From assembly GCA_963783575.1 (NCBI GenBank), contig CAWAOD010000005.1:448001-512000 (forward strand): DNA of 64,000 bases, given 5' to 3'. Of the stretch, positions 12,311-36,385 are shown in pieces. The stretch is from an uncultured Spirochaetota bacterium. Its GTDB lineage: Bacteria > Spirochaetota > Brevinematia > Brevinematales > JAOACQ01. Position 1 is the first letter of the stretch. Each line of letters begins with the position of its first letter. Position numbers and translations under genes: made by a program. A model generated the notes under the pieces. The model saw only the letters and a program-made list of their open reading frames with translations. It was not told where the DNA came from and made no database searches.

Positions 12311-12331
12311 ATATGTTGCACCACTTCGTAC

Positions 12332-17544: not shown

Positions 17545-18677
17545 GTGCTTAATTGCGTAAGTTAACGATAGTATTTCTTAATTGAGAACCTTTCACTTCC
17601 CGTTTTCTCCACACAAAAGGTTTTGCGGTTTCAGTGTATGCTTTAACAAATGCATCTATTGCTTCTCTCAATTCTTCCGTGTTTTTAAAACTGGCGCCTC
17701 TAAGAGCTTTTCGGCTCATAATACCAAACCATATTTCCACCTGATTTAACCAACTTGCCGAAGTAGGCGTGTAATGAAAAAAAACATTCTTATTCCGGGA
17801 TAACCATTCATCGTTCTTTTTGTGAATACAATAATTGTCTAAAATTACATGAATTTCTTTATCTTTTGAAACATCTACCACCACTCTATCCATAAACTCA
17901 AGAAATTCAATACGTCTTTTGTATTCAGTAGTTTGGGTGTGTATTAACCCTGTAGCTACTTCCAGCGCAGCAAATAGGTTCAGCGTTCCATTTCTTTTAT
18001 ATGTACTTTTGTATCCTCTTACAATTTTTCCATTATCCGTCTCTACATAGCCGGTTGTCCTTTCCAACGCTTGAATACCAGGTTTTTCGTCTACAGATAT
18101 AACCAATGCATTCATCGGCGGATTTAAATACAACCCAATAATATTTGTGGCTTTTGTCGAAAATTCAGGATCAGTGCTGACACACCAACTTCGCTGTCGG
18201 GATAAGCAAATTCCTTCTTTTCTTAAAACCCTCCATACCGCATGCGTTGATGTGTTTAAATGTTTTGCTAAAGCCGGACCATCCCAAATTGCCTGCCCGA
18301 TAGGCGGTGTTTTTTCCAGAGTTTCTAAAACTTTGTCCCTGAAATTCTGCCCATATATTTTTGGCTTTCCTGACCTGGGCAGATCATACAATCCATCAAT
18401 TCCTTTTTGCTGAAATCTTTTTTTCCAATCAATAACCGTATTTGGTCTTATGTGAAGGTCAGCCGCAATCTCAGATACATTTTGTCCTTTCAGGCTATTG
18501 ACAATTATTTTCGCCCTCTCTACAAGTCGCGCTTCCATAGTTCGGCTTCTCACCCAACTATCAAGAATAATTTCATCCGCTTTGGTGCATGTTATAACTT
18601 GCGTTTTCTTAGACATACAACCTCCTTTTTTATGTCTAAGATTATAATTAATAACGCTTATTATTGCAATTAAGCAC
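17545..18677 (-). mobile_element. IS630-family insertion sequence
   Basis: TIRs GTGCTTAATTGC / GCAATTAAGCAC flanked by duplicated TA (in CTAG context). Confidence 0.92.
17549..18616 (-). CDS. IS630 transposase
   Basis: SVDEKPGIQAL, ILDNYCIHK and TPTSASWLNQVEIWF motifs. Confidence 0.93.
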   Translation of the reverse strand: MSKKTQVITCTKADEIILDSWVRSRTMEARLVERAKIIVNSLKGQNVSEIAADLHIRPNTVIDWKKRFQQKGIDGLYDLPRSGKPKIYGQNFRDKVLETLEKTPPIGQAIWDGPALAKHLNTSTHAVWRVLRKEGICLSRQRSWCVSTDPEFSTKATNIIGLYLNPPMNALVISVDEKPGIQALERTTGYVETDNGKIVRGYKSTYKRNGTLNLFAALEVATGLIHTQTTEYKRRIEFLEFMDRVVVDVSKDKEIHVILDNYCIHKKNDEWLSRNKNVFFHYTPTSASWLNQVEIWFGIMSRKALRGASFKNTEELREAIDAFVKAYTETAKPFVWRKREVKGSQLRNTIVNLRN

Positions 18678-19201
18678 TAGATCAAAGTGGCCTTTGTGAA
18701 ATAAATCCAATTATTTTTGATTTTAGATTAATTATGAAAAAGTGGTTTTATGTTTGTGAAATTGTATTTTCAATGGAGGATATTGAAATGATTGATAATA
18801 GACAAATTCCAGAGTTAATTATAAAAATCTATTCTGTAATTAATGATGTAAAAAATAATTTAGAAAATTATAATACATCAAATTTGGAAGAAAGGCCACC
18901 CGATGCAACAACAACAGGCTTTTATATTAAAGATGAAAATAAAAATATCATTTTATGGTTTGGAACTTGGTTTGATTTATGGAAAGAGAAAGGCTTTTCA
19001 CTAGCATTTGGTTTACATAAAGATACTGATAATATTATTCTGGATAAATTTAATACTTGCTTTAAAGATAAAATATTTCAATATGATGATTGGTTATTAT
19101 GTGGTATTGACAAATTAATTCTGGAAGATAAGAAACCAGTTGATAATATACTTGAACTACTAAATAACTATTTGTAAAACATGGCGAACCTACCTTCGTT
19201 T

Positions 19202-19412
19202 AACAGCGGCTATACGCTGCGGTGCGTCCTCGCTTCGGCTCCGGTCGCTCCTCGGGTTCGCCCGTTTTTGCTTTTGATAAAATAGAAAGGAGTTCAAATT
19301 GACTATGATGATAAGTAAAATAGAAGTCTTTGTTTACGGGCTCACCACATTTGCAAGCCTAAGCGCGCGGGGCTAGCTCTAAGGCCCGAAAACGTCGTAT
19401 AGCCACACCGTT
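19202..19412 (+). repeat. attC-like site 6 (hybrid: site-5-type left arm, type A right part)
   Basis: Direct comparison with sites 5 and 2. Confidence 0.85.
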
Positions 19413-19445
19413 AAATGCAATTTTGGCCGGATTTGAGGTAAAAGA

Positions 19446-20285
19446 ATGAAAATAATAATAATTATGATTTTATTCGCATCAATTTCAGTTTTTGCTGATA
19501 CTCATTCACCTGTTATACTTTTACCAAATATTAAAATTACTTCGTCAGAATTATTTACAGAAAAGAATAAATATCCACTTTACAATCTTATCGATAAAAA
19601 TTCAAATACAACTTGGGTATTCAAAACCAGTAATATAAATCAAAGTAACATCTTTATTAATATTGAGGTAATAGATGACGATTTAATAAAATATATTAGA
19701 CTTATAAATGGATTTTCAAAATCTGAAAATCTCTATTTTGCTAACAACAGGATTATACAAATAGGATTAACAATTGATAATAATAATAAAAGTATCATTG
19801 ATTTAAAGGAAACATTAGATTTTCAAGATATTGAATTAAATAAATCAACAAAATCATTAATAATGTCTATATTAAAAGTAAATAAAGGCAGAAAATATCT
19901 GGATATTTGTATATCTGAGCTAGAATTATTAGATAGTAATAAAAACAATATATTAGATAAATATAACTATTTTATTTTCAATGAATCAGGTGAATACTCT
20001 GATATTTATATATATGATAAAAAGATAAATAAATATTTTCATTCAAATAAAGAAGGTATAACTGGTTATGGATTTTCACCAAATGGCGATAAAATATTTT
20101 TGAATTATAGTGAAATTGATGGCGTTGGTTTTGATGTCTATTATCTTAAAACAAAAGAAATAAAATCATATTTAACAAACAATAAATATGTAGAGACTAT
20201 GGATTGGATAAGTAATAATTATATAAAAATTAAGTGGTACGATTTGCGGGATATTAAAGGTATTACAAACATACTGATAAATTAA
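19446..20285 (+). CDS. Cassette 7: secreted protein with NADase-type glycan-binding/discoidin-like domain
   Basis: Signal peptide; NLIDKNSNTTW, INGFSKSENLYFANNRI, YLDICISEL. Confidence 0.65.
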   Translation: MKIIIIMILFASISVFADTHSPVILLPNIKITSSELFTEKNKYPLYNLIDKNSNTTWVFKTSNINQSNIFINIEVIDDDLIKYIRLINGFSKSENLYFANNRIIQIGLTIDNNNKSIIDLKETLDFQDIELNKSTKSLIMSILKVNKGRKYLDICISELELLDSNKNNILDKYNYFIFNESGEYSDIYIYDKKINKYFHSNKEGITGYGFSPNGDKIFLNYSEIDGVGFDVYYLKTKEIKSYLTNNKYVETMDWISNNYIKIKWYDLRDIKGITNILIN

Positions 20286-20305
20286 ACACGGCCAAAACTG
20301 CATTT

Positions 20306-20549
20306 AACAGCGGCTATATCGCTCCGGTGCTCGAAAAAACTTTTCAGGGTGTAACGGAGGAGAAGAGAAAAGTTTTTCCTGCGCTCCTCGGATTCGCCCG
20401 TATTTGTTTTTGATAAAAATAGAAAGGAGTTCAACTTGACTATGATGCTTATTAAAATAGAAGTCATTATTTACTGGCTCACCACATTTGCAAGCCTAAG
20501 CGCGCGGGGCTGGCGCTAAGGCTTGCAAACGTCGTATAGCCGCACCGTT
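20306..20549 (+). repeat. attC-like site 7 (type A)
   Basis: Near-copy of site 2. Confidence 0.88.
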
Positions 20550-20592
20550 GTGCGAAAGTCGTGGCAGCTCTATATTAAAATAGGAGTTAGTT

Positions 20593-21162
20593 ATGGATCA
20601 TAATTTAGAGAAAGTATTAAAAAATGGGAAAAAACAAGAGTTTATAAAATTTACATCTTTAATGAATGTAATTGATGATAAAGGGCAATTTCCTTTAAAA
20701 TATTCAGTAGTAAATTCAAATTATGATACTTTTAAAGAATTAATTCCTTACACAAATGTAAATTTGGCAGATAATTATGGTGTAAATGCATTAATAACTA
20801 TAATAAGTAATATCAAAAATGACAAAAATCAAATTGATAAAATAAAATTACTATTACAATATGGTGCAGATGTAAATTCTAAAACTATTGCTGGAATTAC
20901 TCCTTTAATGACTGCTGTATTTATTGGGAAGATTGATATAATTAATATATTAATAAATTCAGGTGCAAATATCAATGATATAGGAAATGATGGTAAATCT
21001 GCTTTATTTCTAGCTGTCATAGCTAATAATAAAGCTATAGTAGAATGTTTATTAAAATATAATGCGAATACTAATTTGATTGATAAAGATAATAAGTCAA
21101 TATTAAATTATTCTAGAAATAAGGATATAACAAAATTATTAGTTGATGCAGGTGCTAAGTAA
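20593..21162 (+). CDS. Cassette 8: ankyrin-repeat protein
   Basis: GITPLMTA...LINSGANIN and GKSALFLA repeats. Confidence 0.9.
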   Translation: MDHNLEKVLKNGKKQEFIKFTSLMNVIDDKGQFPLKYSVVNSNYDTFKELIPYTNVNLADNYGVNALITIISNIKNDKNQIDKIKLLLQYGADVNSKTIAGITPLMTAVFIGKIDIINILINSGANINDIGNDGKSALFLAVIANNKAIVECLLKYNANTNLIDKDNKSILNYSRNKDITKLLVDAGAK

Positions 21163-21195
21163 GTTTGTTGGTTAAATATGCCCCGACCATCGCAC

Positions 21196-21438
21196 AACAA
21201 CGGCTATATCGCTCCGGTGCTCGAAAAAACTTTTCAGGGCGTAACGGAGGAGAAGAGAAAAGTTTTTCCTGCGCTCCTCGGGTTCGCCCGTTTTAGATTT
21301 TGATAAAATAGAAAGGAGTTCATCTTGACTATGATGATTATTAAAATAAAAGTCATTGTTTACGGGCTCACCACATTTGCAAGCCTAAGCGCGCGGGGCT
21401 GGCGCTAAGGCTTGCAAACGTCGTATAGCCGCACCGTT
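21196..21438 (+). repeat. attC-like site 8 (type A)
   Basis: Near-copy of site 2. Confidence 0.88.
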
Positions 21439-21520
21439 AGCTGAAAGTTACGGGAAGGGTTTAAATGAAAAATAACCGCGGCGTCCTGCCGCGATATGAT
21501 AATTATTTTTAGGAGATTTT

Positions 21521-24079
21521 ATGTATAAATCAGAAAATTTAGATGAATTACGGAAAAATAATCCAAACTATTTATCTAAAAAACCATTTGAACATCAAAA
21601 AGATGCTTTTATTAAGTTATCAAATTTATATGATTTAATAGACTTTAAGTCTGGAATTTTAGTTTTACCAACTGGAGCAGGAAAAACTTTTACTTCAATA
21701 AATTGGATATGTCGTAATATTATAGCAAAAGATATAAAAGTTTTATGGTTAGCCCATACATCTCATTTATTAGAACAAGCATACCATGAGTTTTGTAATA
21801 ATTTCTTAGATATTCCACCGCAAAAACAAATTATTAATATAAGAGTTGTTTCAAGTAATCCAAAACACTCAAATCCAAGCGAAATAAAAAACACTGACGA
21901 TGTGTTGATAATTACTTCTCAAACAGCCATTAGTAACTATAATTCTAATGCGACAGATATTTATGGAAAAAAAATTACAACACAATTTGAAATTTTTCTT
22001 TTCAATTCCAATGATAAAGGTCTATTTGTAGTTTTGGATGAAGCTCATCATGCTCCTGCTTATGGAGTACGAAATTTATTAATAGGAGGTTCAAAATTTA
22101 AAAAAGGAATCATGCAGATTGTACCTAATTGTAATTTTCTGGGTTTGACCGCTACGCCAACTTATTCTGAACCAAATAGAAGAGGTTGGTTATGGGAAAT
22201 TTTCAAAGATGGGATAATTTATCAAGCAGATAAAACAGAACTTGAAAAACAAGGAATTCTCGCAATACCTAATTATATTGATTATAATACAGAAATTCAA
22301 TTTGATTTAGATCAAAAATCCTATCAGCAAATTGTCAGAGAACATAAAGACCTACCAGAAAATATTATTGATAATTTAGCTAAAAATGAGCAAAGAAATA
22401 ATTTTATTGCTGAAATTTTTATTAAGAATAGAAAAACATTCGGAAAAACGTTTATATTTGCAGATCGTTGGTATCAATGTGTTTATATAAAAGAAAAATT
22501 TAAAAAGGCGAGAATAAAAGCTGATGCTGTTTTTTCAAGAATAGATGCAAAACTAACAACTGTAGAAGAAAGGAACTCAAATATAAAAACTGATAATGAT
22601 GAAATCCTTAATAAATTTAAACAGAATCAATTAGAAGTTTTATTAAATGTTCAAATGTTAACTGAAGGTACAGATGTCCCTGACGTAGATACAGTGTTCA
22701 TTACAAGACAAACAACAAGTTCAATTTTATTAACACAAATGATTGGAAGAGCATTAAGAGGAACACAGGCGCAGAAAAATGGAAAGATAAAAAATACAGC
22801 TAATATAGTATATTTTATTGATAATTGGCGTCAAGTCATTAACTTTGCATCAGCAACAGAAGGCGGTCTTGCTGAAACAGAAAAAGTAAAAGGTTATTAT
22901 CCAATTGAGTATGTTTCCATTAAATTGATTGAAGAGCTTTCCAGAAGAATTGATAGCGGAACTGTTCTTGCTGATATCCCATTTATTCAGTTATTACCTT
23001 ATGGTTGGTATGAAACTGAAATAACAGTCACAAAAGATGATGAGACTCAAAATTTCAAAGAATTTGTAATAGTATTTGAATCAAATAAAGTTAAATTTGA
23101 AAAATTTATTAATGATATACAAAAATCATTACCTTCTGAATGGGAAGATGAGAATTTATCTGAAGATTATATGTCTAAGCAAATTAAACAATGGGTTTAT
23201 AAGTATTTTTCAAAAGAAGATAATTTAAAAAATACTCTGGATTATGATTTATCAATAATAGCAAGGCATATTGCTCAAAATGAAAAAAAGCCACCGAAGA
23301 TTGTTTTATTTAAAGATCGCAATACACATGATTTATACAAAATTGCCTATGAAACAGTCGAAAAACGTATGGATGAACTGTCTATCTATGATATGTTAGA
23401 ATCAACTTATAATGACTCTGAAAAATTATGGAAAGCTTTTTATAAAAGTTTTGACAGATTTCAATCTGCATTTGATTTTGAAAAGAGATGTGCTGTTTAT
23501 AAAATTAAATATGGCAATACTCCTATAATTAAAATTGCAGACCCCGATATAATAAAACCAACACGGGAACCAACAGAAGAAGAAAAAGAAAAAATATTTA
23601 AACATGATAACTATACCTGTCAATGTTGTGGAAAATATATAAACCCCAATAGTAAAAAAGAAAGGCGGCTTTTAGTAATTGATCATGTAAGTGCTTATAA
23701 ATTTAGAGGAGATAGTTCTGATACTAATCTACAAACACTTTGTGTGACTTGTAATACACATAAAAATATTAACGAGATTAATTTTAGAGTTACTTGTTCA
23801 AAATTATTGAACCCAAAAGATTTTGAGGCTTTTAATGTAGATCAAAATGAAGATTTTGGTACAGTTTTAAAACGCATAATAAATTTCTTTTATAACTGTA
23901 AAGCAGTTTTAAATATAAATTGGTCTACTGATGGAAGAAATAAATATTCAAAAATATGGGAGATAGAACTGTATCCTGAAAATAAAATTGAATGGTTGAA
24001 ACAGAATAAACAAAAATTGATGAATTTTATTCGAAATGAGTTAGAATATAAACAATTAGAAAATATTATTATTAAATAA
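21521..24079 (+). CDS. Cassette 9: SF2 DEAH-box helicase (ResIII-like) fused to C-terminal HNH endonuclease
   Basis: LPTGAGKT, DEAHH, GLTATP, QMIGRALR; CQCCG...IDHV...NLQTLCVTCNTHK. Confidence 0.88.
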   Translation: MYKSENLDELRKNNPNYLSKKPFEHQKDAFIKLSNLYDLIDFKSGILVLPTGAGKTFTSINWICRNIIAKDIKVLWLAHTSHLLEQAYHEFCNNFLDIPPQKQIINIRVVSSNPKHSNPSEIKNTDDVLIITSQTAISNYNSNATDIYGKKITTQFEIFLFNSNDKGLFVVLDEAHHAPAYGVRNLLIGGSKFKKGIMQIVPNCNFLGLTATPTYSEPNRRGWLWEIFKDGIIYQADKTELEKQGILAIPNYIDYNTEIQFDLDQKSYQQIVREHKDLPENIIDNLAKNEQRNNFIAEIFIKNRKTFGKTFIFADRWYQCVYIKEKFKKARIKADAVFSRIDAKLTTVEERNSNIKTDNDEILNKFKQNQLEVLLNVQMLTEGTDVPDVDTVFITRQTTSSILLTQMIGRALRGTQAQKNGKIKNTANIVYFIDNWRQVINFASATEGGLAETEKVKGYYPIEYVSIKLIEELSRRIDSGTVLADIPFIQLLPYGWYETEITVTKDDETQNFKEFVIVFESNKVKFEKFINDIQKSLPSEWEDENLSEDYMSKQIKQWVYKYFSKEDNLKNTLDYDLSIIARHIAQNEKKPPKIVLFKDRNTHDLYKIAYETVEKRMDELSIYDMLESTYNDSEKLWKAFYKSFDRFQSAFDFEKRCAVYKIKYGNTPIIKIADPDIIKPTREPTEEEKEKIFKHDNYTCQCCGKYINPNSKKERRLLVIDHVSAYKFRGDSSDTNLQTLCVTCNTHKNINEINFRVTCSKLLNPKDFEAFNVDQNEDFGTVLKRIINFFYNCKAVLNINWSTDGRNKYSKIWEIELYPENKIEWLKQNKQKLMNFIRNELEYKQLENIIIK

Positions 24080-24169
24080 ATATCTAATTTATTGATTAAA
24101 TAAAGGATGATTATAAACAGCGCCATCCTTGGCTTTTCTGGTTGTGCCGACTTCCCGTAACCTTCAGCT

Positions 24170-24321
24170 AACAAGGCATAGCTGTTCCGCTCCGTCCTCG
24201 CGCGGCTCCGGGCGGTGCTCAGCCTTCGGCACATTTGCCTTTGTCATCTTTTTTGCGCGTGGGATGCAAAAAAGACGCCAATCGCTGACGCGAACGGCAA
24301 ACGTCGCCAAGCTGTACCGTT
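24170..24321 (+). repeat. attC-like site 9 (type B, short)
   Basis: Matches site 3 but lacks its AT-rich loop insert and differs near the GTT end. Confidence 0.85.
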
Positions 24322-24378
24322 ATATGCAATGCCTTAAATTTTCTTGTTTTATAAATATTAGTATAATAGGAGGTTAAA

Positions 24379-24873
24379 ATGAATCCTAATGTTAATTTGA
24401 CATTATTTTCTAAGGATAGTTATCGCTCGACCCGACAAGGGAAAATGGTGCTTAATTTTAGTGCGCTCCAAATATTTCCCTTATTGTGCCCAGTAGAAGA
24501 GTATAAATGGTTCCCAGGCTGGGAATGTATAATGGTATATTCCAAAACAGGGATTGCAGAGAAAGATGCCGTCTTTTTAACCAAAGAAAAGGACGGTTCT
24601 AATATTGTCTGGACAGTTATCACATATGATCCACCCAATTTAATTGAATTTAGTATCGTAAACGGTCTGAATTCCGTCGAGAGATTCAGTATTATTTTGA
24701 CAGAGATATCTCATAAAAGTACTGAACTTGAATGGAAAATCATGAATACATCTTATTCAAAAAATAGTATTGAACAAAACAAAAATCAAAATAATGAATC
24801 TTTTAATATTTTTTTAGAAGATAGAAAAAAGGAAATGGACTACTATCTACGGACAGGGAAAATAATTCAATAA
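24379..24873 (+). CDS. Cassette 10: SRPBCC-like protein
   Basis: IFPLLCPVEEYKWFPGW...WTVITYDPP pattern. Confidence 0.65.
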   Translation: MNPNVNLTLFSKDSYRSTRQGKMVLNFSALQIFPLLCPVEEYKWFPGWECIMVYSKTGIAEKDAVFLTKEKDGSNIVWTVITYDPPNLIEFSIVNGLNSVERFSIILTEISHKSTELEWKIMNTSYSKNSIEQNKNQNNESFNIFLEDRKKEMDYYLRTGKIIQ

Positions 24874-24897
24874 TTATATTAATAAGGCACTGCGCAC

Positions 24898-25050
24898 AAC
24901 AGCAAGTCAGCGGTTGCGCTCGAGTACTCGCTCCACCCAAATCGCCGGGCTGGTTGAAAGCAATTAAATATGTTAATTTTTATAAATGCTTTTTGATATA
25001 ATATTTACAGCTTAATTAAATACCGGCGACTTCGCCGACTTGCACCCGTT
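24898..25050 (+). repeat. attC-like site 10 (type C, divergent)
   Basis: AACAGCAAGTC...GACTTGCACCCGTT; internal TCGCCGG/CCGGCGA stem. Confidence 0.8.
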
Positions 25051-25164
25051 GTACGAAAATTTCCGGGCCGAAGCTGATGATATTACTTTTCCGGCGTCCT
25101 TGCCGGAAAAATGATTTATTATTTAAAATGTATTAGAATTTATATCGATTAGTAGAGGTTTTAA

Positions 25165-26439
25165 ATGGCATTATTATCAGAAATTGAATCTGCACTAATG
25201 CTTGGAATTACAGTTGAATTATTAAATTCATATACAAAATATTGTCCAAAATCTGGCGAAAATGTTAAATTAAAATATAAAATAGTAAAAGGTATAAAAC
25301 ATTTTGAAAAAGATGATATTCTATTTTATCATAAATATTTAAACAGTCCGTGGCCTATGCCAAAAAAAGGAGAAAGACCATATATTCCTAAAGCAATCCA
25401 AGATTTTATAAAGTTTGAATCACATTATTCCTGTTCAATTTGCGGTCATATGGATAATGGTGAAATAGCACATATTGAAGCAGTTTCAACAACACTAAAT
25501 AATAGTCCAGATAATCTTATTTATTTATGTCCAAATCATCATACAAAATATGATTATGGTTACAAACCTAATAGTAATGTTACATTAGAAGAAATTCGTG
25601 CTTCAAAACTTTTAAAAAGAAATGCTTTACAAAGAGTGATGAAATATGAGTCTAATACAGTTAAATTATTAAAAGTTACATTATTAAACATAAAATCAAT
25701 CAGTGAAAAACTAGCCTTTGAAAGTGATAAAACAATGCTAGAGATTTATAATGTTGAATTACAAAACATTGTGAAGAATTTACCAGAATATATAGATAAA
25801 GCAAATGATGACGCAAAAAAAGATATAAGTTTAGTAAATGAAAAAGAACTATTATCTAAAAATGCACCAAATTTAATAAAATATTCAAATATAATAATAA
25901 AAGATTCTTCTTTGTTCAAAACATCCGTTGACTCAATAATCAAGATTTCTAACGAAATATTTATTGATTTAGATGAATATCCCTGTCCTCATTGTGGAGG
26001 AAGCGGACTAACAGGATTACTCGGTGATATATGTGTTTATTGTAAAGGTTCTTGTGTAGTCTCAAAGCAAATGGTTAATAGTTATGACTCTAATAAAATT
26101 GATGAAGTTGAATGTCCTCATTGTGGAGGAAGCGGACTAACAGGATTACTCGGTAATATATGTATTTATTGTAAAGGTTCTCGTAGAGTATCTCATAAAA
26201 AGTTTGATCAGTATGATCCAGATAAAATCGATGAAGTTGATTGCCCTCGTTGTGGGGGAAGCGGACTAACAGGATTACTCGGTGATATATGTACTTATTG
26301 TAAAGGTTCTCGTAGAGTATCTCATAAAAAGTTTGATGAGTATGATCCCGATGAAACCAATGAAGTTGAATGTCCTCATTGTAGGGGAAGTGGTCTATCA
26401 GGATTAGTCGGTAATGTATGTAAATTATGTAAAGGTTAA
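25165..26439 (+). CDS. Cassette 11: HNH endonuclease with four C-terminal CxxCxGxG zinc-finger repeats
   Basis: CSICG...EIAHI...NLIYLCPNHHTKYD; repeats CPHCGGSGLTGLLGDICxYCKGS. Confidence 0.8.
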   Translation: MALLSEIESALMLGITVELLNSYTKYCPKSGENVKLKYKIVKGIKHFEKDDILFYHKYLNSPWPMPKKGERPYIPKAIQDFIKFESHYSCSICGHMDNGEIAHIEAVSTTLNNSPDNLIYLCPNHHTKYDYGYKPNSNVTLEEIRASKLLKRNALQRVMKYESNTVKLLKVTLLNIKSISEKLAFESDKTMLEIYNVELQNIVKNLPEYIDKANDDAKKDISLVNEKELLSKNAPNLIKYSNIIIKDSSLFKTSVDSIIKISNEIFIDLDEYPCPHCGGSGLTGLLGDICVYCKGSCVVSKQMVNSYDSNKIDEVECPHCGGSGLTGLLGNICIYCKGSRRVSHKKFDQYDPDKIDEVDCPRCGGSGLTGLLGDICTYCKGSRRVSHKKFDEYDPDETNEVECPHCRGSGLSGLVGNVCKLCKG

Positions 26440-26566
26440 TGTGTTGTAACTAAGATAGTATATAAAGAATATATCAAGAAATATGGAACTATTGGCGATT
26501 AAAGCCTCCGCCGTCCTGGGCTCCGGCTTTTTGCTTAAACATTCGGCCCGGAAAACATCGTACAAC

Positions 26567-28361
26567 GGCCTTGTAGAAAAAGTTAATTTCAGGTAATAAT
26601 CCTCCATTCCCAAACAGTTTGTTTTTTTTGATCTGTCTGGAATTACTTTATTTATATAAAACCGGGCTGAATTTACCGGCAAAGCTGCTTTTATTCCATC
26701 ACTATGCCATTATATCCCTCCATAGACCTGAATTTTCCCGATATTGTGCACAGTATTATATAATACCCATTGAATATTCACTTTTCCCTTTCCCCTCAGC
26801 GTAAATCGATCCATACCTTTACATGCCCTTATATTCCCGAATACAGGCTCAACTATAGCCATTCTTTTCGCATAAAGCTTTCTGCCTTAAGGTGTATCTA
26901 TGAACTTTCTCATTTCGTCCGAGTAATGTCTGTTATCCGCATTCAATGGCCTTTGCAACATCGTGTTGCTGTCGAACTAACGTTCGACGGCCTTTTTGGC
27001 TATATAGTAGCTCTTATGGAACCTCCGTGTTCCCAAGGTTGTTTGATTTTATTTTAATTCTTCAGGAAGTCTTTCCGGAATGGACAATTACGGCAGGACA
27101 ATAACCGGCAGATATACTTCGCATATGTAATATGATTCACCGTATGGTTATATCTGAACCTGAGTTCCTCTCCTTTCTTGCATATATAAACATTATTTTC
27201 CGGATCATATTGAAAATCATCAATTGTATACTGCCCTTTCTTCGCAGGCTTATGTCTGTCAGCGGTTTCAAACCTGCAATCGCGCTTCCTGAAATTCGTA
27301 TCCGGGATGACCGGTTTCATACCGTTTTGCGAAATATATTTCAGGTTCTTTTCGCTGAAATAATTGGTGTCCGCAGTGATTATTTTATCCTTTAAATCTT
27401 TTCCCAATTCTACTTTTGCTTTACGGATCATCCCTTTCAGGAATTCCCCCTCAGACCCGCTCCCAAAAGCTTCGGGATATACCACAACCTGATACTTCGA
27501 ATCCACTACAGAAAGTCCGTTGTAGCCCTGGATAACACCATGTGAACTCTTTATTTTCGCACTCTCGTTGTCAGTGACATTGGACTGCTTTTCACCATGC
27601 CGTGCCTTGTTTTTGGGTTTTTCACTTTCCAGAAACTTTTCTATCTTTTCCGCTTTCTTTAAAATCTTCTCGATCCGTGCCAGATCTTTTTCCTTATCCT
27701 TCTCAGGAAAACCGCCGGCCTGATCACGCTTTTCATGTTCATCAAGCATTTCCTTAACCAGGTTTTCCAGCTTCTCTTTTTTCTTCTTCAAATCCTTAAA
27801 TGTTCCGCTCCATTCCTTTGATGCATTTGACGATAGTTTGCACCCGTCCAGCGCGAACATATCCCCGCCTATGAGATTCAGTTCGTCACAAACCATTAAT
27901 ATATTCAGGAATACGGTATTTATCTCATTTTTCATCGATGATACAAAATCGGCGATGGAAGTAAAGTGCGGTATTGAATTGGCGGAAATGGCTTTGGCTA
28001 TAATATTCGTTTTACACAAATACTCGATTTCACGTGATGTAAAAATACCGCGGGAATAGCTGTAGAGTATTATTTTGAGCATAACCCGCGGATTATAAGC
28101 CGGGGCACCGGTAGCATCGTTCTTATACTTATTCTCAAAGATTTTAAGATCAATTCTGTTGTCAACAAGAAAACTGAGTGTATATTCAAATGTTCCCGGT
28201 ATAATCTGCTCATCGAATGAGACAGGTATGAGTTCCATTTGATCGTAATTAACTTTCTTATATCTTGCCATAATTGCTTTTACCTCTTGATTTTATTTCC
28301 AATATATTTTAAAGTATATACGATATTCTGTACATGAATGACGGACTTTTTCTACAGGCTC
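26567..28361 (-). mobile_element. IS1182-family element, copy 1, inserted at attC AAC core
   Basis: TIRs GGCCTTGTAGAAAAAGT / ACTTTTTCTACAGGCTC; (C)AAC duplicated. Confidence 0.9.
27054..28271 (-). CDS. IS1182 transposase N-terminal part; C-terminal part 26710-26961 has an extra stop in this copy
   Basis: GAPAYNPRVMLKIILY, FALDGCK, SNVTDNES, QGYN, TADTNY. Confidence 0.85.
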   Translation of the reverse strand: MARYKKVNYDQMELIPVSFDEQIIPGTFEYTLSFLVDNRIDLKIFENKYKNDATGAPAYNPRVMLKIILYSYSRGIFTSREIEYLCKTNIIAKAISANSIPHFTSIADFVSSMKNEINTVFLNILMVCDELNLIGGDMFALDGCKLSSNASKEWSGTFKDLKKKKEKLENLVKEMLDEHEKRDQAGGFPEKDKEKDLARIEKILKKAEKIEKFLESEKPKNKARHGEKQSNVTDNESAKIKSSHGVIQGYNGLSVVDSKYQVVVYPEAFGSGSEGEFLKGMIRKAKVELGKDLKDKIITADTNYFSEKNLKYISQNGMKPVIPDTNFRKRDCRFETADRHKPAKKGQYTIDDFQYDPENNVYICKKGEELRFRYNHTVNHITYAKYICRLLSCRNCPFRKDFLKN

Positions 28362-28516
28362 AACAGCGCGTAGACGCTGCGCTCCTCGGCTATCGCTAAG
28401 GCGACCGGCTGCGGCCTTAGCCTGCGGTGCTCGGGCTTCGCCAAATTTGCCTTTGGCACACATTTTTGCAAAGCAAAAAGATGTGACAAAGGCAAACTTC
28501 GTCTACGCGAACCGTT
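28362..28516 (+). repeat. attC-like site 11 (separated from its cassette by IS1182)
   Basis: AACAGCGCGTAGACG...CGTCTACGCGAACCGTT. Confidence 0.83.
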
Positions 28517-28575
28517 GTACGCCATATCGTCCAGCAAAATTGAATTATACAAATAATAATACAAATAATATGTAC

Positions 28576-28604
28576 TTGACATCATAAATAAAAAATGATA
28601 TAGT
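28576..28604 (+). promoter_or_regulatory. Sigma70-type promoter of TA cassette
   Basis: TTGACA-17 nt-TATAGT with TGn extension; ATG follows after 5 nt. Confidence 0.7.
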
Positions 28605-28609
28605 TATTT

Positions 28610-28972
28610 ATGTGGATTATTGATAGATCTGAAGAAATAATTAAATGGATTCAAGGATTGGATGATGATGCAAAGGAATCAATATTACAGCATTTGATTA
28701 TTCTAAAAAATATTGGACCTTCTTTAGGAAGACCATATGTTGACTTAATTGATGAAAGTAAACATAAGAATATGAAAGAATTAAGGGTTCAAAATAAAAA
28801 AAGAGCTTTTAGAATATTCTTTGCCTTTGATCCTGAAAGAAAAGCAATCTTATTAATTGGTGGAGATAAAAAAGGCAATAAAAATTTCTACAAAGAAATA
28901 ATACCAAAAGCAGATAATTTATATGACATACATTTAAAAGAATTGGAGAAAAAATATGAAAGAAAAAGTTAG
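28610..28972 (+). CDS. Cassette 12: RelE/ParE-like (Gp49/HigB-type) toxin
   Basis: GPSLGRPYVD...MKELRVQ...RIFFAFDPERKAILLIGGDK. Confidence 0.9.
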   Translation: MWIIDRSEEIIKWIQGLDDDAKESILQHLIILKNIGPSLGRPYVDLIDESKHKNMKELRVQNKKRAFRIFFAFDPERKAILLIGGDKKGNKNFYKEIIPKADNLYDIHLKELEKKYERKS

Positions 28973-29279
28973 TAAGAGAGACTTTTTAGATGAATTATCA
29001 AATACTCTCTCTCCTGAAAGAGTTGAAAGAGCTAAAACAAATGCTGATAAAGAAATATTTAAGATCAGATTGTCAGAATTAAGAAAACAAATGGGAGTTA
29101 AACAAGAAGAAATAAAATCCTTTTCTCAATCCAGTATATCCAGAATAGAATCAAGAAAAGATATGAAAGTTTCAACTCTTATTGAATATTTAGAAGATAT
29201 TGGAATGGGTCTTGAAATTAAAGTATATCCAAAAAAAAGAAGTAATAAAAACAAAGAAGTAACATTATTGCGAGTCTGA
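28956..29279 (+). CDS. Cassette 12: XRE-HTH antitoxin
   Basis: LSELRKQMGVKQ...SQSSISRIESRKDMKVSTL; overlaps toxin gene. Confidence 0.88.
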   Translation: MKEKVSKRDFLDELSNTLSPERVERAKTNADKEIFKIRLSELRKQMGVKQEEIKSFSQSSISRIESRKDMKVSTLIEYLEDIGMGLEIKVYPKKRSNKNKEVTLLRV

Positions 29280-29455
29280 TTCTACCGACAGCTGGACGAT
29301 ACGGCGTACAACGGCCTTGTAGAAAAAGTTAATTTCAGGTAATAATCCTCCATTCCCAAACAGTTTGTTTTTTTTGATCTGTCTGGAATCACTTTTTTTT
29401 TATAAAACCGGGCTGAATTTACAGGCAAAACTGTTTTTATTCCATCACTATGCCA

Positions 29456-29707
29456 TTATATACCTCCATAGACCTGAATTTTCCCGATATTGTGCACAGT
29501 ATTATATAATACCCATTGAATATTCACTTTTCCCTTTCCCCTCAGCGTAAATCGATCCATACCTTTACATGCCCTTATATTCCCGAATACAGGCTCAACT
29601 ATAGCCATTCTTTTCGCATAAAGCTTTCTGCCTTCAGGCGTATCTATGAACTTTCTCATTTCGTCCGAGTAATGTCTGTTATCCGCATTCAATGGCCTTT
29701 GCAACAT
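29456..29707 (-). CDS. IS1182 transposase C-terminal part
   Basis: YAKRMAIVEPVFGNIR...FTLRGKGKVNIQW...VHNIGK. Confidence 0.75.
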   Translation of the reverse strand: MLQRPLNADNRHYSDEMRKFIDTPEGRKLYAKRMAIVEPVFGNIRACKGMDRFTLRGKGKVNIQWVLYNTVHNIGKIQVYGGI

Positions 29708-29799
29708 CGTGTTGCTGTCGAACTAACGTTCGACGGCCTTTTTGGCTATATAGTAGCTCTTATGGAACCTCCGTGTTCCCAAGGTTGTTTGATTTTATT

Positions 29800-31017
29800 T
29801 TAATTCTTCAGGAAGTCTTTCCGGAATGGACAATTACGGCAGGACAATAACCGGCAGATATACTTCGCATATGTAATATGATTCACCGTATGGTTATATC
29901 TGAACCTGAGTTCCTCTCCTTTCTTGCATATATAAACATTATTTTCCGGATCATATTGAAAATCATCAATTGTATACTGCCCTTTCTTCGCAGGCTTATG
30001 TCTGTCAGCGGTTTCAAACCTGCAATCGCGCTTCCTGAAATTCGTATCCGGGATGACCGGTTTCATACCGTTTTGCGAAATATATTTCAGGTTCTTTTCG
30101 CTGAAATAATTGGTGTCCGCAGTGATTATTTTATCCTTTAAATCTTTTCCCAATTCTACTTTTGCTTTACGGATCATCCCTTTCAGGAATTCCCCCTCAG
30201 ACCCGCTCCCAAAAGCTTCGGGATATACCACAACCTGATACTTCGAATCCACTACAGAAAGTCCGTTGTAGCCCTGGATAACACCATGTGAACTCTTTAT
30301 TTTCGCACTCTCGTTGTCAGTGACATTGGACTGCTTTTCACCATGCCGTGCCTTGTCTTTGGGTTTTTCACTTTCCAGAAACTTTTCTATCTTTTCAGCT
30401 TTCTTTAAAATCTTCTCGATCCGTGCCAGATCTTTTTCCTTATCCTTCTCAGGAAAACCGCCGGCCTGATCACGCTTTTCATGTTCATCAAGCATTTCCT
30501 TAACCAGGTTTTCCAGCTTCTCTTTTTTCTTCTTCAAATCCTTAAATGTTCCGCTCCATTCCTTTGATGCATTTGACGATAGTTTGCACCCGTCCAGCGC
30601 GAACATATCCCCGCCTATGAGATTCAGTTCATCGCAAACCATCAGTATATTAAGGAATATGGTATTTATCTCATTTTTCATCGAAGAAACAAAATCGGCG
30701 ATTGAAGTAAAGTGCGGTATTGAATTGGCGGAAATGGCTTTGGCTATAATATTCGTTTTACACAAATATTCGATTTCACGTGATGTAAAAATACCGCGGG
30801 AATAGCTGTAGAGTATTATCTTCAGCATAACCCGCGGATTATAAGCCGGGGCACCGGTAGCATCGTTCTTATACTTATTCTCAAAGATTTTAAGATCAAT
30901 TCTGCTGTCAACAAGAAAACTGAGTGTATATTCAAATGTTCCCGGTATAATCTGCTCATCGAATGAGACAGGTATGAGTTCCATTTGATCGTAATTAACT
31001 TTCTTATATCTTGCCAT
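29800..31017 (-). CDS. IS1182 transposase N-terminal part
   Basis: Near-identical to 27054-28271. Confidence 0.85.
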   Translation of the reverse strand: MARYKKVNYDQMELIPVSFDEQIIPGTFEYTLSFLVDSRIDLKIFENKYKNDATGAPAYNPRVMLKIILYSYSRGIFTSREIEYLCKTNIIAKAISANSIPHFTSIADFVSSMKNEINTIFLNILMVCDELNLIGGDMFALDGCKLSSNASKEWSGTFKDLKKKKEKLENLVKEMLDEHEKRDQAGGFPEKDKEKDLARIEKILKKAEKIEKFLESEKPKDKARHGEKQSNVTDNESAKIKSSHGVIQGYNGLSVVDSKYQVVVYPEAFGSGSEGEFLKGMIRKAKVELGKDLKDKIITADTNYFSEKNLKYISQNGMKPVIPDTNFRKRDCRFETADRHKPAKKGQYTIDDFQYDPENNVYICKKGEELRFRYNHTVNHITYAKYICRLLSCRNCPFRKDFLKN

Positions 31018-31107
31018 AATTGATTTCCCCTCTTGATTTTATTTACAATATATTTTAAAGTATAACCGTTATTTTGTACATGAATGACGGACTTTTTCTA
31101 CAGGCTC

Positions 31108-31351
31108 AACAGCGGCTATATCGCTCCGGTGCACGAAAAAACTTTTAAAGGCGTAACGGAGAAGAAGAGAAAAGTTTTTCCTGCGCTCCTCGGGTTCGCC
31201 CGTTTTTGCTCTAAGTTAAAAGAGGAAGGAGTTCAAATTGACTATGATAATTAATAAAATAGAAGTTATTGTTTACGGGCTCACCACATTTGCAAGCCTA
31301 AGCGCGCGGGGCTTGCGCTAAGGCTTGCAAACGTCGTATAGCCGCACCGTT
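31108..31351 (+). repeat. attC-like site 12 (type A)
   Basis: Near-copy of site 2, follows IS copy 2. Confidence 0.87.
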
Positions 31352-31396
31352 GTACGAAATGGTGCAACGCTTTTTAATATAATTTAAGGAGTATTT

Positions 31397-31939
31397 GTGA
31401 ACAATGATCCAATGAAATCAGCTAGAGAAGATTATAAACCTACTCCATTTTACTTTTCTGAAGAAAATAATAATTTTAAAAGATATGTTGTTTATAACAA
31501 TTCATTTGAAATCATTAAACAACTATTAAAAGAAATAATAAGTTCCTATGATAATATAATAGAAATATTATTAAAAGATTCTCAAGGTTATGATGATAAA
31601 AAGGAAGAAGATATTTGGGACAGATATTATTCAGAAACCACAAAAGAAAACATTTTAAAATTACTTGAAATTCATTCAAAATATATTTTCTTTGATGGAA
31701 ATAATCAATTATGCATAAAAGATTCATCAACTGGTGATTATATTTCTTTTGATGATCATGGAATTTTATTTATTTATACTGATAAGTTTATTGATGACTT
31801 ATTATTAAAAAATGGAATAGAAAAAAAGAAAAATGAATTAATTTATGATCAAGGTCATTGGCATATAAGACCAAAAGATGCTGATGTATTAATGAATAAT
31901 TTTATTAAGGACTTACAATTAAAAAAGCTTGAAGATTAA
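31397..31939 (+). CDS. Cassette 13: hypothetical protein (paralog of cassette 3)
   Basis: AAGGAG RBS then GTG; similar to 11759-12310. Confidence 0.8.
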   Translation: MNNDPMKSAREDYKPTPFYFSEENNNFKRYVVYNNSFEIIKQLLKEIISSYDNIIEILLKDSQGYDDKKEEDIWDRYYSETTKENILKLLEIHSKYIFFDGNNQLCIKDSSTGDYISFDDHGILFIYTDKFIDDLLLKNGIEKKKNELIYDQGHWHIRPKDADVLMNNFIKDLQLKKLED

Positions 31940-31963
31940 ACATGTTGCGCCACTTCGCACAAC

Positions 31964-33338
31964 GGCCTTGTAGAAAAAGTTAATTTCAGGTAATAATCCT
32001 CCATTCCCAAACAGTTTGTTTTTTTTGATCTGTCTGGAATCACTTTTTTATATAAAACCGGGCTGAATTTACCGGCAAAACTGCTTTTATTCCATCACTA
32101 TGCCATTATATACCTCCATAGACCTGAATTTTCCCGATATTGTGCACAGTATTATATAATACCCATTGAATATTCACTTTTCCCTTTCCCCTCAGCGTAA
32201 ATCGATCCATACCTTTACATGCCCTTATATTCCCGAATACAGGCTCAACTATAGCCATTCTTTTCGCATAAAGCTTTCTGCCTTCAGGTGTATCTATGAA
32301 CTTTCTCATTTCGTCCGAGTAATGTCTGTTATCCGCATTCAATGGCCTTTGCAACATCGTGTTGCTGTCGAACTAACGTTCGACGGCCTTTTTGGCTATA
32401 TAGTAGCTCTTATGGAACCTCCGTGTTCCCAAGGTTGTTTGATTTTATTTTAATTCTTCAGGAAGTCTTTCTGGAATGGACAATTACGGCAGGCCGATAA
32501 CCGGCAGATATACTTCGCGTATGTAATGTGATTCACCGTATGGTTATATCTGAACCTGAGTTCCTCTCCTTTCTTGCATATATAAACATTATTTTCCGGA
32601 TCATATTGAAAATCATCAATTGTATACTGCCCTTTCTTCGCAGGCTTATGTCTGTCAGCGGTTTCAAACCTGCAATCGCGCTTCCTGAAATTCGTATCCG
32701 GGATGACCGGTTTCATACCGTTTTGCGAAATATATTTCAGGTTCTTTTCGCTGAAATAATTGGTGTCCGCAGTGATTATTTTATCCTTTAAATCTTTTCC
32801 CAATTCTACTTTTGCTTTACGGATCATCCCTTTCAGGAATTCCCCCTCAGACCCGCTCCCAAAAGCTTCGGGATATACCACAACCTGATACTTCGAATCC
32901 ACTACAGAAAGTCCGTTGTAGCCCTGGATAACACCATGTGAACTCTTTATTTTCGCACTCTCGTTGTCAGTGACATTGGACTGCTTTTCACCATGCCGTG
33001 CCTTGTCTTTGGGTTTTTCACTTTCCAGAAACTTTTCTATCTTTTCAGCTTTCTTTAAAATCTTCTCGATCCGTGCCAGATCTTTTTCCTTATCCTTCTC
33101 AGGAAAACCGCCGGCCTGATCACGCTTTTCATGTTCATCAAGCATTTCCTTAACCAGGTTTTCCAGCTTCTCTTTTTTCTTCTTCAAATCCTTAAATGTT
33201 CCGCTCCATTCCTTTGATGCATTTGACGATAGTTTGCACCCGTCCAGCGCGAACATATCCCCGCCTATGAGATTCAGTTCATCGCAAACCATCAGTATAT
33301 TAAGGAATATGGTATTTATCTCATTTTTCATCGAAGAA
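31964..33338 (-). mobile_element. IS1182-family element, copy 3 (transposase 5' end deleted)
   Basis: Begins after CACAAC; ORFs 32450-33331 and 32106-32357; fused directly to the right part of an attC-like site. Confidence 0.87.
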
Positions 33339-33401
33339 CCCGCAAACCTAAGCGCGCGGGGCTGGCGCTAAGGTTTGCGGGCTTCGTATAGTCGAGCCGT
33401 T
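33339..33401 (+). repeat. Right remnant of attC-like site 13
   Basis: CCCGCAAACCTAAGCGCGCGGGGCTGGCGCTAAGGTTTGCGGGCTTCGTATAGTCGAGCCGTT matches the end of site 1. Confidence 0.83.
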
Positions 33402-33453
33402 GTACGCCATTCAATGTGAACTATATCCCTATTCCTAAGTTTTTAAATTTTAA

Positions 33454-33482
33454 TTGACAAATTTATAAATATGTATTACTAT
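33454..33482 (+). promoter_or_regulatory. Sigma70-type promoter of second TA cassette
   Basis: TTGACA-17 nt-TACTAT. Confidence 0.6.
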
Positions 33483-33490
33483 GTTTACAT

Positions 33491-33760
33491 ATGGTATATT
33501 ATGAAGAAGATGTGGAAAAAAATTTGTCTAAAGGTAAAATTCCACAAGATGTTTTTGTCCACATGAATAATGCTTTTATTTCTATTGATTCGACTAAAGA
33601 TTTAACTTTATTCGATATTAAAAAGCTGATATCTAAAAAAAAAACAGCTTATTACAGGTTAAGAAAAGGAAAATATAGGGCTATTTTTTATTTAGAAGAT
33701 GATAGTGTGTATGTTATTAAAATTTCAAAAAGGGAGGATGTGTACAAAAAATGGGAGTAA
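33491..33760 (+). CDS. Cassette 14: RelE-family toxin
   Basis: DIKKL...YYRLRKGKYRAIF...ISKREDVYK. Confidence 0.85.
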   Translation: MVYYEEDVEKNLSKGKIPQDVFVHMNNAFISIDSTKDLTLFDIKKLISKKKTAYYRLRKGKYRAIFYLEDDSVYVIKISKREDVYKKWE

Positions 33761-34002
33761 TCTCAGTTCGTTTCAATCCAAAAGAAGAAAAAGTTCTTAA
33801 TTATTTGTCTAAATATTATGATAAAGAAAAATCATCGCTGATAAAACAAGCATTGATAGATATGTATGAAGATATAGTTGATCGTGAGGAAATAGATAAA
33901 TTTTTGATTAGAAAGGAAAAAGGGAAGATTAGTTTTAAATCAGCTGATGAAATACTGGATGCACAGGGCACGGCGCACAACGGCCTTATAGAAAAAGTCT
34001 AA
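33751..34002 (+). CDS. Cassette 14: RHH (RelB/DUF6290-like) antitoxin
   Basis: VISVRFNPKEE...SSLIKQAL...YEDIVD; reads through the cassette end into the IS remnant. Confidence 0.75.
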   Translation: MGVISVRFNPKEEKVLNYLSKYYDKEKSSLIKQALIDMYEDIVDREEIDKFLIRKEKGKISFKSADEILDAQGTAHNGLIEKV

Positions 34003-34140
34003 TTTAAGTTACAGTTTTCCTATCCATCCGGTTCCAAAAATATTATTTTGCCGAATAGCATTAATTTTCTATATGTTGAAAAATATTGATTATAATGCCC
34101 CCCGCAGTATTAACGCCATTTCTGATTGAGCCTTTGTGCA
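33982..34140 (-). mobile_element. Remnant end of a related IS1182-like element at cassette-14 AAC
   Basis: CACAAC followed by GGCCTTATAGAAAAAGT; inner boundary uncertain. Confidence 0.6.
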
Positions 34141-34671
34141 TTAAAAAGTGAACTCGGTATAATTTTAGTCGTTATTCATCATTAACATGGTAAGAACAAG
34201 CATAAGGGTTTTGCCATGGAGGGCAAAAACCGAGGAATCAGTCAAAGGACGGACTGATGACGAGGCGATTTTTTAAAAGAGTGGTTTGAAAAATACACCG
34301 AATAACATCTCAATACTTAAAGACCACTTTGCATGAAATGACGCTCATGCGAAGGGGCTACTCTTTCTTGGCACACCTTCTATCTGTTCGCCACAGAAAG
34401 AAGGTGTGAAAGCCACATTGCCGAGGCTCTGCGGCAACTAATATTTGAAAAGAACCTTATGGGCCAAATTGATTTGAAAACTTTTATGTTTAGTTCTATA
34501 ATGAAACAAAAAGTGTTTCGTTAGGAATAAAAGTGTTACCCATGTCTTGAGGTTGGACCCCAGACAAAAATTAGTTATAGGCGCGCGCGAAAGGAGATAA
34601 TTCGTAGTATCTGGAATAGCAACCAATCGCAATAAGACTTCTGATAACAATAATTGGGATAAGATTGCTTA

Positions 34672-35268
34672 TTACACTGTAAAAACAGGAAGCAGTATTT
34701 CATCGACAAATAACGCAATCCGGTTCGAATCAACATTTTTATACATAAGATTTTCCATACGAATAAGGTTAAACGGTAAGGTCAGTGTTATGTCGCTGAC
34801 CTCTTTTATCTTTTCGCCTCTTGACTTTGCATTTTCCAGTAATTTTCGCATAACCAGGATATTTTTTGCTGCTGCGTCTACCTCAGCTTCGGGGACTTTG
34901 TTATTACCTTGCCCTATTTCAAATAAAACTGCACTCAAAATTTCCGGACCAATTTCTGCGTAGATACTCTGGTAGAGTGTAAGCAAATTTAACAGATCCC
35001 CACGTAAAGCTCCGCTATTTTCTATTCTGTCGATTAATTGACCACCAAGCGCTTTAGATGATCTGTCATCAACTATTTCCATAAGTAAGTCAAACATGTT
35101 TACCCACCGTCGATACAACACACTGCGGCTGGTTTTTGCTGTCTTCGCAATCTGCAGAAAAGTGAGATTGGCGTAACCGACTTTTTTTATGAGCTTTACA
35201 GCCGCGTCATAAATACTTTCGACTAAAGTATCTCCCCGCTTTCGTGTATTCACACTTGTCTCATTCAT
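34672..35268 (-). CDS. TetR-family regulator
   Basis: GYANLTFLQIAKTAKTSRSVLYRRW HTH. Confidence 0.88.
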   Translation of the reverse strand: MNETSVNTRKRGDTLVESIYDAAVKLIKKVGYANLTFLQIAKTAKTSRSVLYRRWVNMFDLLMEIVDDRSSKALGGQLIDRIENSGALRGDLLNLLTLYQSIYAEIGPEILSAVLFEIGQGNNKVPEAEVDAAAKNILVMRKLLENAKSRGEKIKEVSDITLTLPFNLIRMENLMYKNVDSNRIALFVDEILLPVFTV

Positions 35269-35328
35269 GGATATACATCTCCTCAGTCTGTATTTCTGTA
35301 ATAGTATACAATATTTTTAAAAAAAATA

Positions 35329-35396
35329 TAAGATACATCTTGTATTTTATATTTGGATAGTGTATACTATTAATATAAGATACATATAGTATCTTA
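35329..35396. promoter_or_regulatory. Two TetR-like operators TAAGATAC-N5-GTAT(C/T)TTA
   Basis: Palindromes at 35329-35349 and 35376-35396 between divergent genes. Confidence 0.65.
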
Positions 35397-35442
35397 TCGA
35401 AGAATTGTCGAAATTAACCAGGCAAAAATTAAAGGAGGGAAT

Positions 35443-36175
35443 TATGACACAGAGCATACAGAAATCCAAACCGGATTATGGTTTTGATGGTTCGCCATTC
35501 GGAGTCACCATTATTTGTTTAGCGGGAGTAGTTTGTTTTGGCGGGGGAGCTGCTTTAATCACTTTTCCCAGTCTCATCCTGAAGATTGTGGCCGTTGTTC
35601 TTATGATTTGCGGTTTGTTAATAATTCTTGTTTGTGGTTCATATCTTTATTACGTCAAGCTCGGCAAATTCCACCGCAGGGACAAGATGCTTTCCATGAT
35701 TGATTGGAAAGGAAATGAAAAAGTCCTTGATATCGGCACTGGACGGGGACTTTTAATGATTGGAGCTGCCAAAAAATTGACTCAGGGAAAGAGCATCGGC
35801 ATTGATATTTGGAATGCGGGAGATATGCACAGCAATACTTATCAAAATACCATGAGAAATGCCGAGCTTGAGGGGGTACTTGAAAAAGTTGAAGTAAGAA
35901 ATGAGGATGTGCGAGGTATGTCCTTTCCCAATGATTCCTTTGATGTTGTTCTTTCCAACCTTTGTATCCACAACATCCCTGCCAAAGATGGACGAGAGAA
36001 AGCCTGCCGGGAAATAGCGAGAGTCTTGAAATCAAATGGAACAGCGATCATTGCCGATAAATCTCACCTAAAAGAATACGGTGAAATTTTCGCAATGGAA
36101 GGGTTAACAGTGGAGGTTTTTCGTACTTCTTTTGACGGTTCGCTCCGCGGGATTGTAAAGGCGGTCAAAAAGTGA
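35443..36175 (+). CDS. Class I SAM-dependent methyltransferase with N-terminal TM helices
   Basis: VLDIGTGRG and FDVVLSNLCIHNI; GGAGGG RBS before ATG at ~35444. Confidence 0.87.
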
Positions 36176-36303
36176 AGCTTATATTTGATACAAAACTCTT
36201 CAAAACTATTGGGGATTGGTGATTTTTGCAATAGGAGAATATTAAAGAAATGCGCAAGTAAGAAATTGATATATAGTAGTTTGCCTTGCTTACTTCACAC
36301 AAC

Positions 36304-36385
36304 GGCTTTGTAGAATAAGTTAATTTCAGGTAATAATACTCCCTTTCCAAAGAGTATGTTTTTTATCGATCTGTCCGGAATTTTA
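36304..36385 (-). mobile_element. Degenerate IS1182 end following CACAAC
   Basis: GGCTTTGTAGAATAAGTTAATTTCAGGTAATAAT resembles the copy 1-3 end. Confidence 0.65.

Follow-up and report, generated by a model that had tools for sequence, protein, structure and literature searches.

Targeting of integron attC sites appears to have been reported previously only for two unrelated kinds of mobile element, the IS1111-attC group of insertion sequences (ISs) and the group IIC-attC introns. Members of the IS1111-attC group, such as ISKpn4 and ISPst6, lie at one defined place in attC and belong to the IS110/IS1111 family, with a DEDD recombinase guided by a seekRNA (PMC11187229). Group IIC-attC introns are RNA retroelements, which enter the R″ box by reverse splicing with base pairing and without duplication (bottom-strand TTGT/T, within the conserved AAC) and lie antisense, between the cassette gene and its attC (PMC7923331, PMC3001079). 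The IS1182 family has a DUF772 domain and a DDE transposase of ~495 aa, short terminal inverted repeats and, in some members, palindromic targets (PMC5678879, PMC4923244); IS1272 deletes or replaces a hairpin, with no duplication and little sequence preference (PMC5678879). Here we analysed a 64,000-nucleotide stretch of DNA from an uncultured Spirochaetota bacterium (G000:C5:448001-512000, hereafter the window; G000 is the genome under study and C4, C5, C9, C10, C12, C13 and C16 are contigs of it). From the sequences, an IS1182-family DDE transposase found there very probably inserts its element, with a 3-bp stagger and in a fixed orientation, at the conserved AAC/GTT of the attC R box.

In this genome the element is seated in the AAC of the attC R″ (inverse core) box, antisense to the cassettes, and the neighbouring genes are unbroken. 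A first-pass annotation of the window had listed five related IS ends (26567, 29313, 31964, 33982 and 36304), all in one orientation and each immediately after ACAAC. Positions and orientation were confirmed, while the end at 33982 proved to be of a diverged type, with 75-87% identity to similar remnants elsewhere. Four of the five had been placed at clear cassette ends, rightly so, and the fifth (36304) turns out to be a cassette end too, by comparison with the genome G011. The methyltransferase segment preceding it is 94% identical in G011, where a different full element (66% protein identity) stands at the same AAC, followed by attC; two similar cassette ends are empty and have a single AAC.

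Both full-length copies are followed by the rest of the site, as had been stated: AAC and then the attC 5′ arm come after their left ends. The annotation also had these copies duplicate (C)AAC. The duplication is of AAC, 3 bp, and the C is the element's own terminal base, since two copies on C10 have GAAC and TAAC upstream and yet CAAC downstream in both. CAAC as the duplicated sequence is ruled out by these flanks and by the relatives described below. Joined to AAC, the left end of the element reads GCTCAAC, a consensus R″ box (RYYYAAC), so that the R box is restored and the site is not simply destroyed. In the bottom-strand fold of both full-copy sites, 3/3 AAC:GTT pairs and 1/4 outer pairs are kept.

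Genome-wide mapping of the copies revealed no majority in unrelated targets. Exactly 28 of the 30 right ends follow AAC to the nucleotide, one being shifted in register by 1 nt and one following TAC, and all left ends (9/9) precede AAC and an attC 5′ arm; AAC occupies 1.5% of positions in the genome. The flank at C9 386225 duplicates that at 26567, which leaves 29 distinct flanks. A profile of the outer half alone picked out 309 AAC sites, among them 231 non-attC and 36 R′-type sites that are unoccupied (crude classes), whereas the 16 top matches of a two-sided profile were all empty R″ junctions. The inner arm therefore contributes. A 24-bp linear sequence thus seems enough to single out the targets here, sequence and structure being inseparable in this genome. 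An unrelated IS1182 element of the window provides a control: its abundant lineage (39 BLAST rows) lies at repetitive extragenic palindromic (REP)-like sequences, once inside an attC body though not at an R box, and a third IS1182 lineage (7 copies) sits in hairpin loops. We also observed a second IS1182-like lineage (~26% identity) and a miniature of it, both inserted ~4 nt into R″ and apparently duplicating 4 bp (L159, L160 and L162 of G011; C16:112031-112128; C9:128544).

The targets were taken for attC sites in the first-pass annotation, and the starts and ends of the cassettes, which are complementary, and the attC-like flanks and folds bear this out. Every cassette preceding an element end starts with GTTGTAC and has an end nearly complementary to its own start, which is the cassette signature. 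The sites agree with R″ RYYYAAC and R′ GTTRRRY, the local consensus GTACAAC having an A at one Y position, and 7 of 12 window sites gave a bottom-strand fold pairing AAC with GTT in an automated pass. The start of the first cassette (GTT 10246) complements the R″ end at 10726, and no attC body lies upstream of this cassette, so that the 3′ GTT is R′ and the 5′ AAC is R″. The attC sites in 10726-31355 are of unusual length, reaching 253 bp, and contain large hairpins. An empty allele of the toxin-antitoxin cassette was looked for and none was found; the G005 homologue has no attC.

The element is 1,795 bp long, has 17-bp terminal inverted repeats matching at 14/17 positions and carries its transposase on the - strand. 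IS1182 elements have terminal inverted repeats, a length of 1.3-2 kb and a single open reading frame (ORF), and the element agrees with this, as do its relatives (1,717-1,922 bp). Its attribution to IS1182 holds: with the NF033551 (IS1182) model, the intact copy on C16 scored 278.6 bits against a cut-off of 270, three relatives 277-297 and the truncated window ORF 216. The claim that it is a DDE transposon was likewise sustained, as D142, D301 and E449 are invariant in 35 aligned sequences, together with Y441 and R444, and the predicted structure (mean predicted local distance difference test, pLDDT, 83) is nearest to Tn5 transposase (E 9e-5, template modelling score, TM, 0.36). Y441, R444 and E449 fit the IS4-like motif Y-R-E-K/R.

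The transposase ORF of copy 1 (27054-28271) is truncated. In the window copies a net insertion of 78 bp, derived from a dispersed repeat family, interrupts the transposase at codon 405 and ends its ORF at 405 aa; this insert is present in whole or in part in 5 of the 7 aligned copies. The C16 copy is a single intact ORF of 494 aa without the insert, which rules out a programmed frameshift; the C4 copy is broken in another way. The repeat family that broke the transposase (26960-27060) is palindromic and dispersed, with dozens of copies at 70-80% in the genome. The non-coding ends of the element are short (about 90 and 140 nt), and a scan for outward promoters found 9 sites against 7.4 expected, no evidence for one. 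A search of sequencing runs yielded one DNA run with a small share, and no RNA run was listed. Gene-less miniatures of ~100-110 bp, bounded by the same ends and seated at the same AAC, occur in this genome (C16:118829-118937) and at L041, there in tandem with a full element.

Compared with the described systems, the element resembles the IS1111-attC group in its single defined place in attC. It differs from that group in its protein, which is not an IS110/IS1111 DEDD transposase but a Tn5-like DDE enzyme, in its terminal repeats and in its 3-bp target duplication. With group IIC-attC introns it shares entry at R″ within the same AAC, the antisense orientation and the position between gene and attC; it is a DNA transposon, with no reverse transcriptase or maturase in the window element, and its relatives also use R′. 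Unlike IS1272, it duplicates a fixed triplet at one R box with fixed polarity and keeps the hairpin, so that stem-loop replacement does not describe it.

Relatives were collected from searches of genomes, plasmids, viruses and metagenomes, the metagenome set being the best 80 of 570 matches; 110 loci were examined, own-genome and duplicate loci excluded, and 79 had both ends. Close transposase relatives were found in Spirochaetota genomes; plasmids gave 3 distant matches and viral contigs 1, without usable ends. The 79 two-ended relatives (36-88% identity) fall into 68 with AAC on both sides, 5 with GTT on both sides, 4 with other matching triplets and 2 with mismatched ones, and in G174 and G351 the profile overlooked seven further ends, which on visual reading have AAC. 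As some relatives duplicate other triplets, the cut is a true 3-bp staggered one, and a core-type recombination in which AAC is part of the element is ruled out. The four bases outside AAC are RYYY in the relatives too, and 26 of 54 reconstructed sites folded attC-like, closing on AAC:GTT, vs 36 of 300 random AAC. Two complete genomes, G331 and G379, each have a single integron integrase above cut-off, and every match is found close to it (6 matches within 66 kb and 3 within 26 kb, respectively). Family, ends, 3-bp duplication, target identity, orientation and conservation across relatives can be read in the DNA itself.

The arm of attC that is used differs between branches. Arm profiles were built from 16 class 1 attC sites (leave-one-out orientation correct for 16/16) and are uninformative for the spirochaete sites here. 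For the flanks of 58 metagenome elements, the 3′-arm profile score was 0.9 vs -10.4 +/- 5.9 for random GTT, and 52 of the 58 fit the R′ arm better than R″, in agreement with ORF orientation, which rules out that all AAC-flanked relatives are at R″. Under strict thresholds the calls for 71 rows were 21 R′, 1 R″ and 49 unclear. Most distant relatives thus appear to use the R′ crossover GTT, co-directionally with the cassettes, and the branch of this genome R″. The R′ group is large (FastTree support 0.999). The window branch, made up of G000, G001 and G011 and sister to a Gracilibacter element (FastTree support 0.955), is R″ antisense, and in G001 and G011 an antisense-strand gene stops 19-59 nt before AAC at 8 of 10 loci. 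A few GTT-flanked elements seem flipped when read by eye. The Gracilibacter contig L002, of a Bacillota assembly, has an attC-like hairpin at 2829-2901 with an element at its AAC; Bacillota are reported to be without complete integrons in PMC4889954.

Several observations weigh against targeting of the attC R box as we describe it. Four relatives duplicate triplets other than AAC, the strict fold test was failed by 28 of the 54 reconstructed sites, and a rigid L-box scorer separates targets from shuffles poorly (3/47 at p<=0.05). The rebuilt R″ box, with its 1/4 outer pairs, gives a fold 2.4 kcal/mol weaker. One G011 copy lies at an AAC inside an apparent gene and another before an older right end, with no hairpin, so a hairpin is sometimes dispensable. 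The resident integrase carries a frameshift and scores below the integron cut-off. Finally, the best 80 of 570 metagenome matches do not define the limits of the clade.

Could the transposase read structure, recognising the base of a hairpin or cruciform extruded by attC, with AAC merely always located there? IS1272 and TnSha1 target hairpins whose sequences are little conserved (PMC5678879, PMC4923244), the interiors of attC sites differ greatly and the relatives use either arm of a near-palindromic site, all of which such a recognition would accommodate. We nevertheless consider it unlikely, as insertion yields a plain duplication of 3 bp in one arm, the stem-loop being neither lost nor duplicated, as one arm only is used here, as a linear profile of 24 bp suffices to pick out the R″ sites of this genome, and as two G011 copies are without an attC hairpin. 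It is improbable that the element is led to its target by another molecule, either the integrase (IntI) recruiting it at the R box or an RNA from a non-coding end as in the IS1111-attC group. SeekRNA guidance has been shown for ISKpn4 and ISPst6 (PMC11187229), but the protein here is Tn5-like DDE and not DEDD, and its non-coding ends are short. The duplicated triplet is indeed the one that integrases bind, and the three examined genomes with R″ insertions have integrases without the same model segment, the two R′ genomes having full-length ones (a small comparison, confounded by kinship); against this, the integrase here is broken and yet recent-looking copies exist.

Selection could also mimic targeting, if the element inserted at many AAC and survived where harmless, or spread by duplication and recombination. 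The copies are mosaic, and one flank is duplicated with a two-cassette block. This origin is nonetheless very improbable, given 29 distinct, nucleotide-exact flanks in one orientation, many harmless intergenic AAC sites that are empty, the same register in dozens of divergent relatives, and other IS1182 lineages that persist at many other places in this genome.

For insertion at the R box by the transposase itself, we propose the following scheme. Acting on duplex DNA by a presumed cut-and-paste chemistry, the transposase would join the element ends to the two strands at points 3 bp apart, on either side of AAC/GTT. Attack on the two arms of a folded hairpin would delete or duplicate the site, as in the IS1272 model (PMC5678879), and this is not seen, for which reason we infer a duplex target. 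The specificity most likely comes from the transposase reading the R box and the adjoining inner arm of attC. In this branch the element would land between a cassette gene and its attC, antisense, with its left end toward the hairpin; the duplicated AAC and the GCTC of the left end would rebuild a RYYYAAC box, and the element would become part of that cassette. With the R″ box rebuilt, no gene is cut and attC can still fold; it would presumably also go on functioning, and the element would move with cassettes. The spread of the broken window copies probably depended on an intact copy acting in trans, and their reshuffling on recombination from copy to copy. What the element would gain is an abundant landing site that spares genes and passes from array to array.

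The first-pass annotation had raised segmental duplication as a possible origin of the copies. It explains one pair only, on C5 and C9, the other flanks being distinct. In this pair, a block of two cassettes and the element (from 24317 in the window) recurs on C9, beginning exactly at G|TT; the C9 copy is mosaic and has a different attC after the element. The block fits cassette movement together with recombination between copies and is circumstantial for hitch-hiking. In the window the first 10 attC sites are empty and the last 5 occupied, while on C10 empty and occupied sites alternate; the gradient in the window hints at accumulation in old cassettes or at reduced mobility. The element may hitch-hike on cassettes or freeze them, as had been suggested, with circumstantial evidence for each. 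Seven cassette boundaries elsewhere (G000 C13:203466-213752; C12:23373 and 25011) consist of R″, 35-65 nt of the element's right end and a shared segment of 70-100 nt, in many cases with an attI-like string at its end, ahead of the following cassette. They may be scars left when an integrase removed a related element, or hybrid sites that were propagated.

Table 1. Features of the window (positions in nucleotides from its first letter)
Feature	Position	Strand	Remarks
Tyrosine recombinase gene, integron-integrase-like, frameshifted	9129..10170	+	TIGR02249 match; same direction as cassettes
attI-like entry site	10225..10252	+	First cassette starts at GTT 10246, without attC body upstream
Proximal cassette array	10726..25054	+	10 unoccupied attC sites of 160-253 bp
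Cassette, ORF 25165-26439	25048..26566	+	R″ end GTACAAC; start/end complementarity; also on contig C9 with element
IS1182 copy 1, full-length	26567..28361	-	Right end 26567, left end 28361; AAC at 26564-26566 and 28362-28364
attC	28358..28520	+	R″ outer bases GCTC supplied by element left end
Toxin-antitoxin-type cassette	28514..29312	+	28610-28972, 28956-29279
IS1182 copy 2, full-length	29313..31107	-	AAC duplicated; transposase interrupted (29800-31017, 29456-29707)
attC, 252 bp	31104..31355	+	R″ rebuilt by element left end
Cassette, ORF 31397-31939	31349..31963	+	Paralogue 11759-12310 ends in unoccupied attC, single AAC
IS1182 copy 3, left part deleted	31964..33337	-	Fused to 3′ part of attC (33337-33405)
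Toxin-antitoxin-type cassette	33399..33981	+	33491-33760, 33751-34002
Right-end remnant of diverged relative	33982..34050	-	After R″ GCACAAC
TetR regulator and methyltransferase cassette	34672..36303	not set	R″ end ACACAAC
Right-end remnant, 79 bp	36304..36382	-	87% identity
Unrelated IS1182 element (control)	58207..59919	+	Targets REP-like palindrome

No gene of this genome matches TIGR02249 better than the recombinase gene at the head of the array (E 2e-28), yet its score of 100.5 bits stays far below the cut-off of 265, model positions about 175-232 being unmatched in its product. Integrases above this cut-off, which define complete integrons, are found in G331 and G379. The array integrases of the window, G011 and G174 are ~40 residues short relative to TIGR02249 (about 175-232); those of G331 and G379 are not. 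Among the cassette products, a helicase with an HNH domain (21521-24079) and an HNH-like protein containing CXXCXGXG zinc-finger units in repeats (25165-26439) are possible defence functions, and a domain of F5/8 type C-like character (PF25302) is present in the protein at 19446-20285. ISs have colonised the genome heavily, the window also holding an IS21-like pair (14437-16742), an IS630-like element (17549-18616) and DDE elements at 2628-3875 and 41750-43132.

The literature searched contained no report of an IS1182 element at attC, subscription papers, ISfinder and supplements being outside its reach, and an IS1182-attC link is absent from the accessible parts of PMC9137128, PMC3971601, PMC13656550, PMC6199540, PMC12444791, PMC11089894, PMC8876359 and PMC4889954. 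Taken jointly, the data are open to a wider reading, which we put forward only tentatively: a widespread DDE lineage would read the architecture of attC directly, with neither guide RNA nor integrase, and would have changed arm and polarity from branch to branch (antisense at R″ here, co-directional at R′ in most, the other two geometries in a few). Because its ends would rebuild the R box, it would live inside working cassettes, travel with them and remodel arrays, including the hybrid boundaries of C12 and C13, which start with its right end.

If targeting of the R box is true, it would add a third way of parasitising integron recombination sites, independent of the others in its chemistry and converging on the triplet used by group IIC-attC introns. 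With 29 distinct occupied ends in this genome vs 16 clearly empty R″ junctions, a large share of the sites is occupied, and the element can therefore shape how arrays age and break up; it can also mislead attC-finding tools. Comparing close relatives of unlike arm and polarity would give direct access to the way in which a DDE transposase selects a structured target, a point on which PMC6199540 lists the IS1182 mechanisms as unknown.

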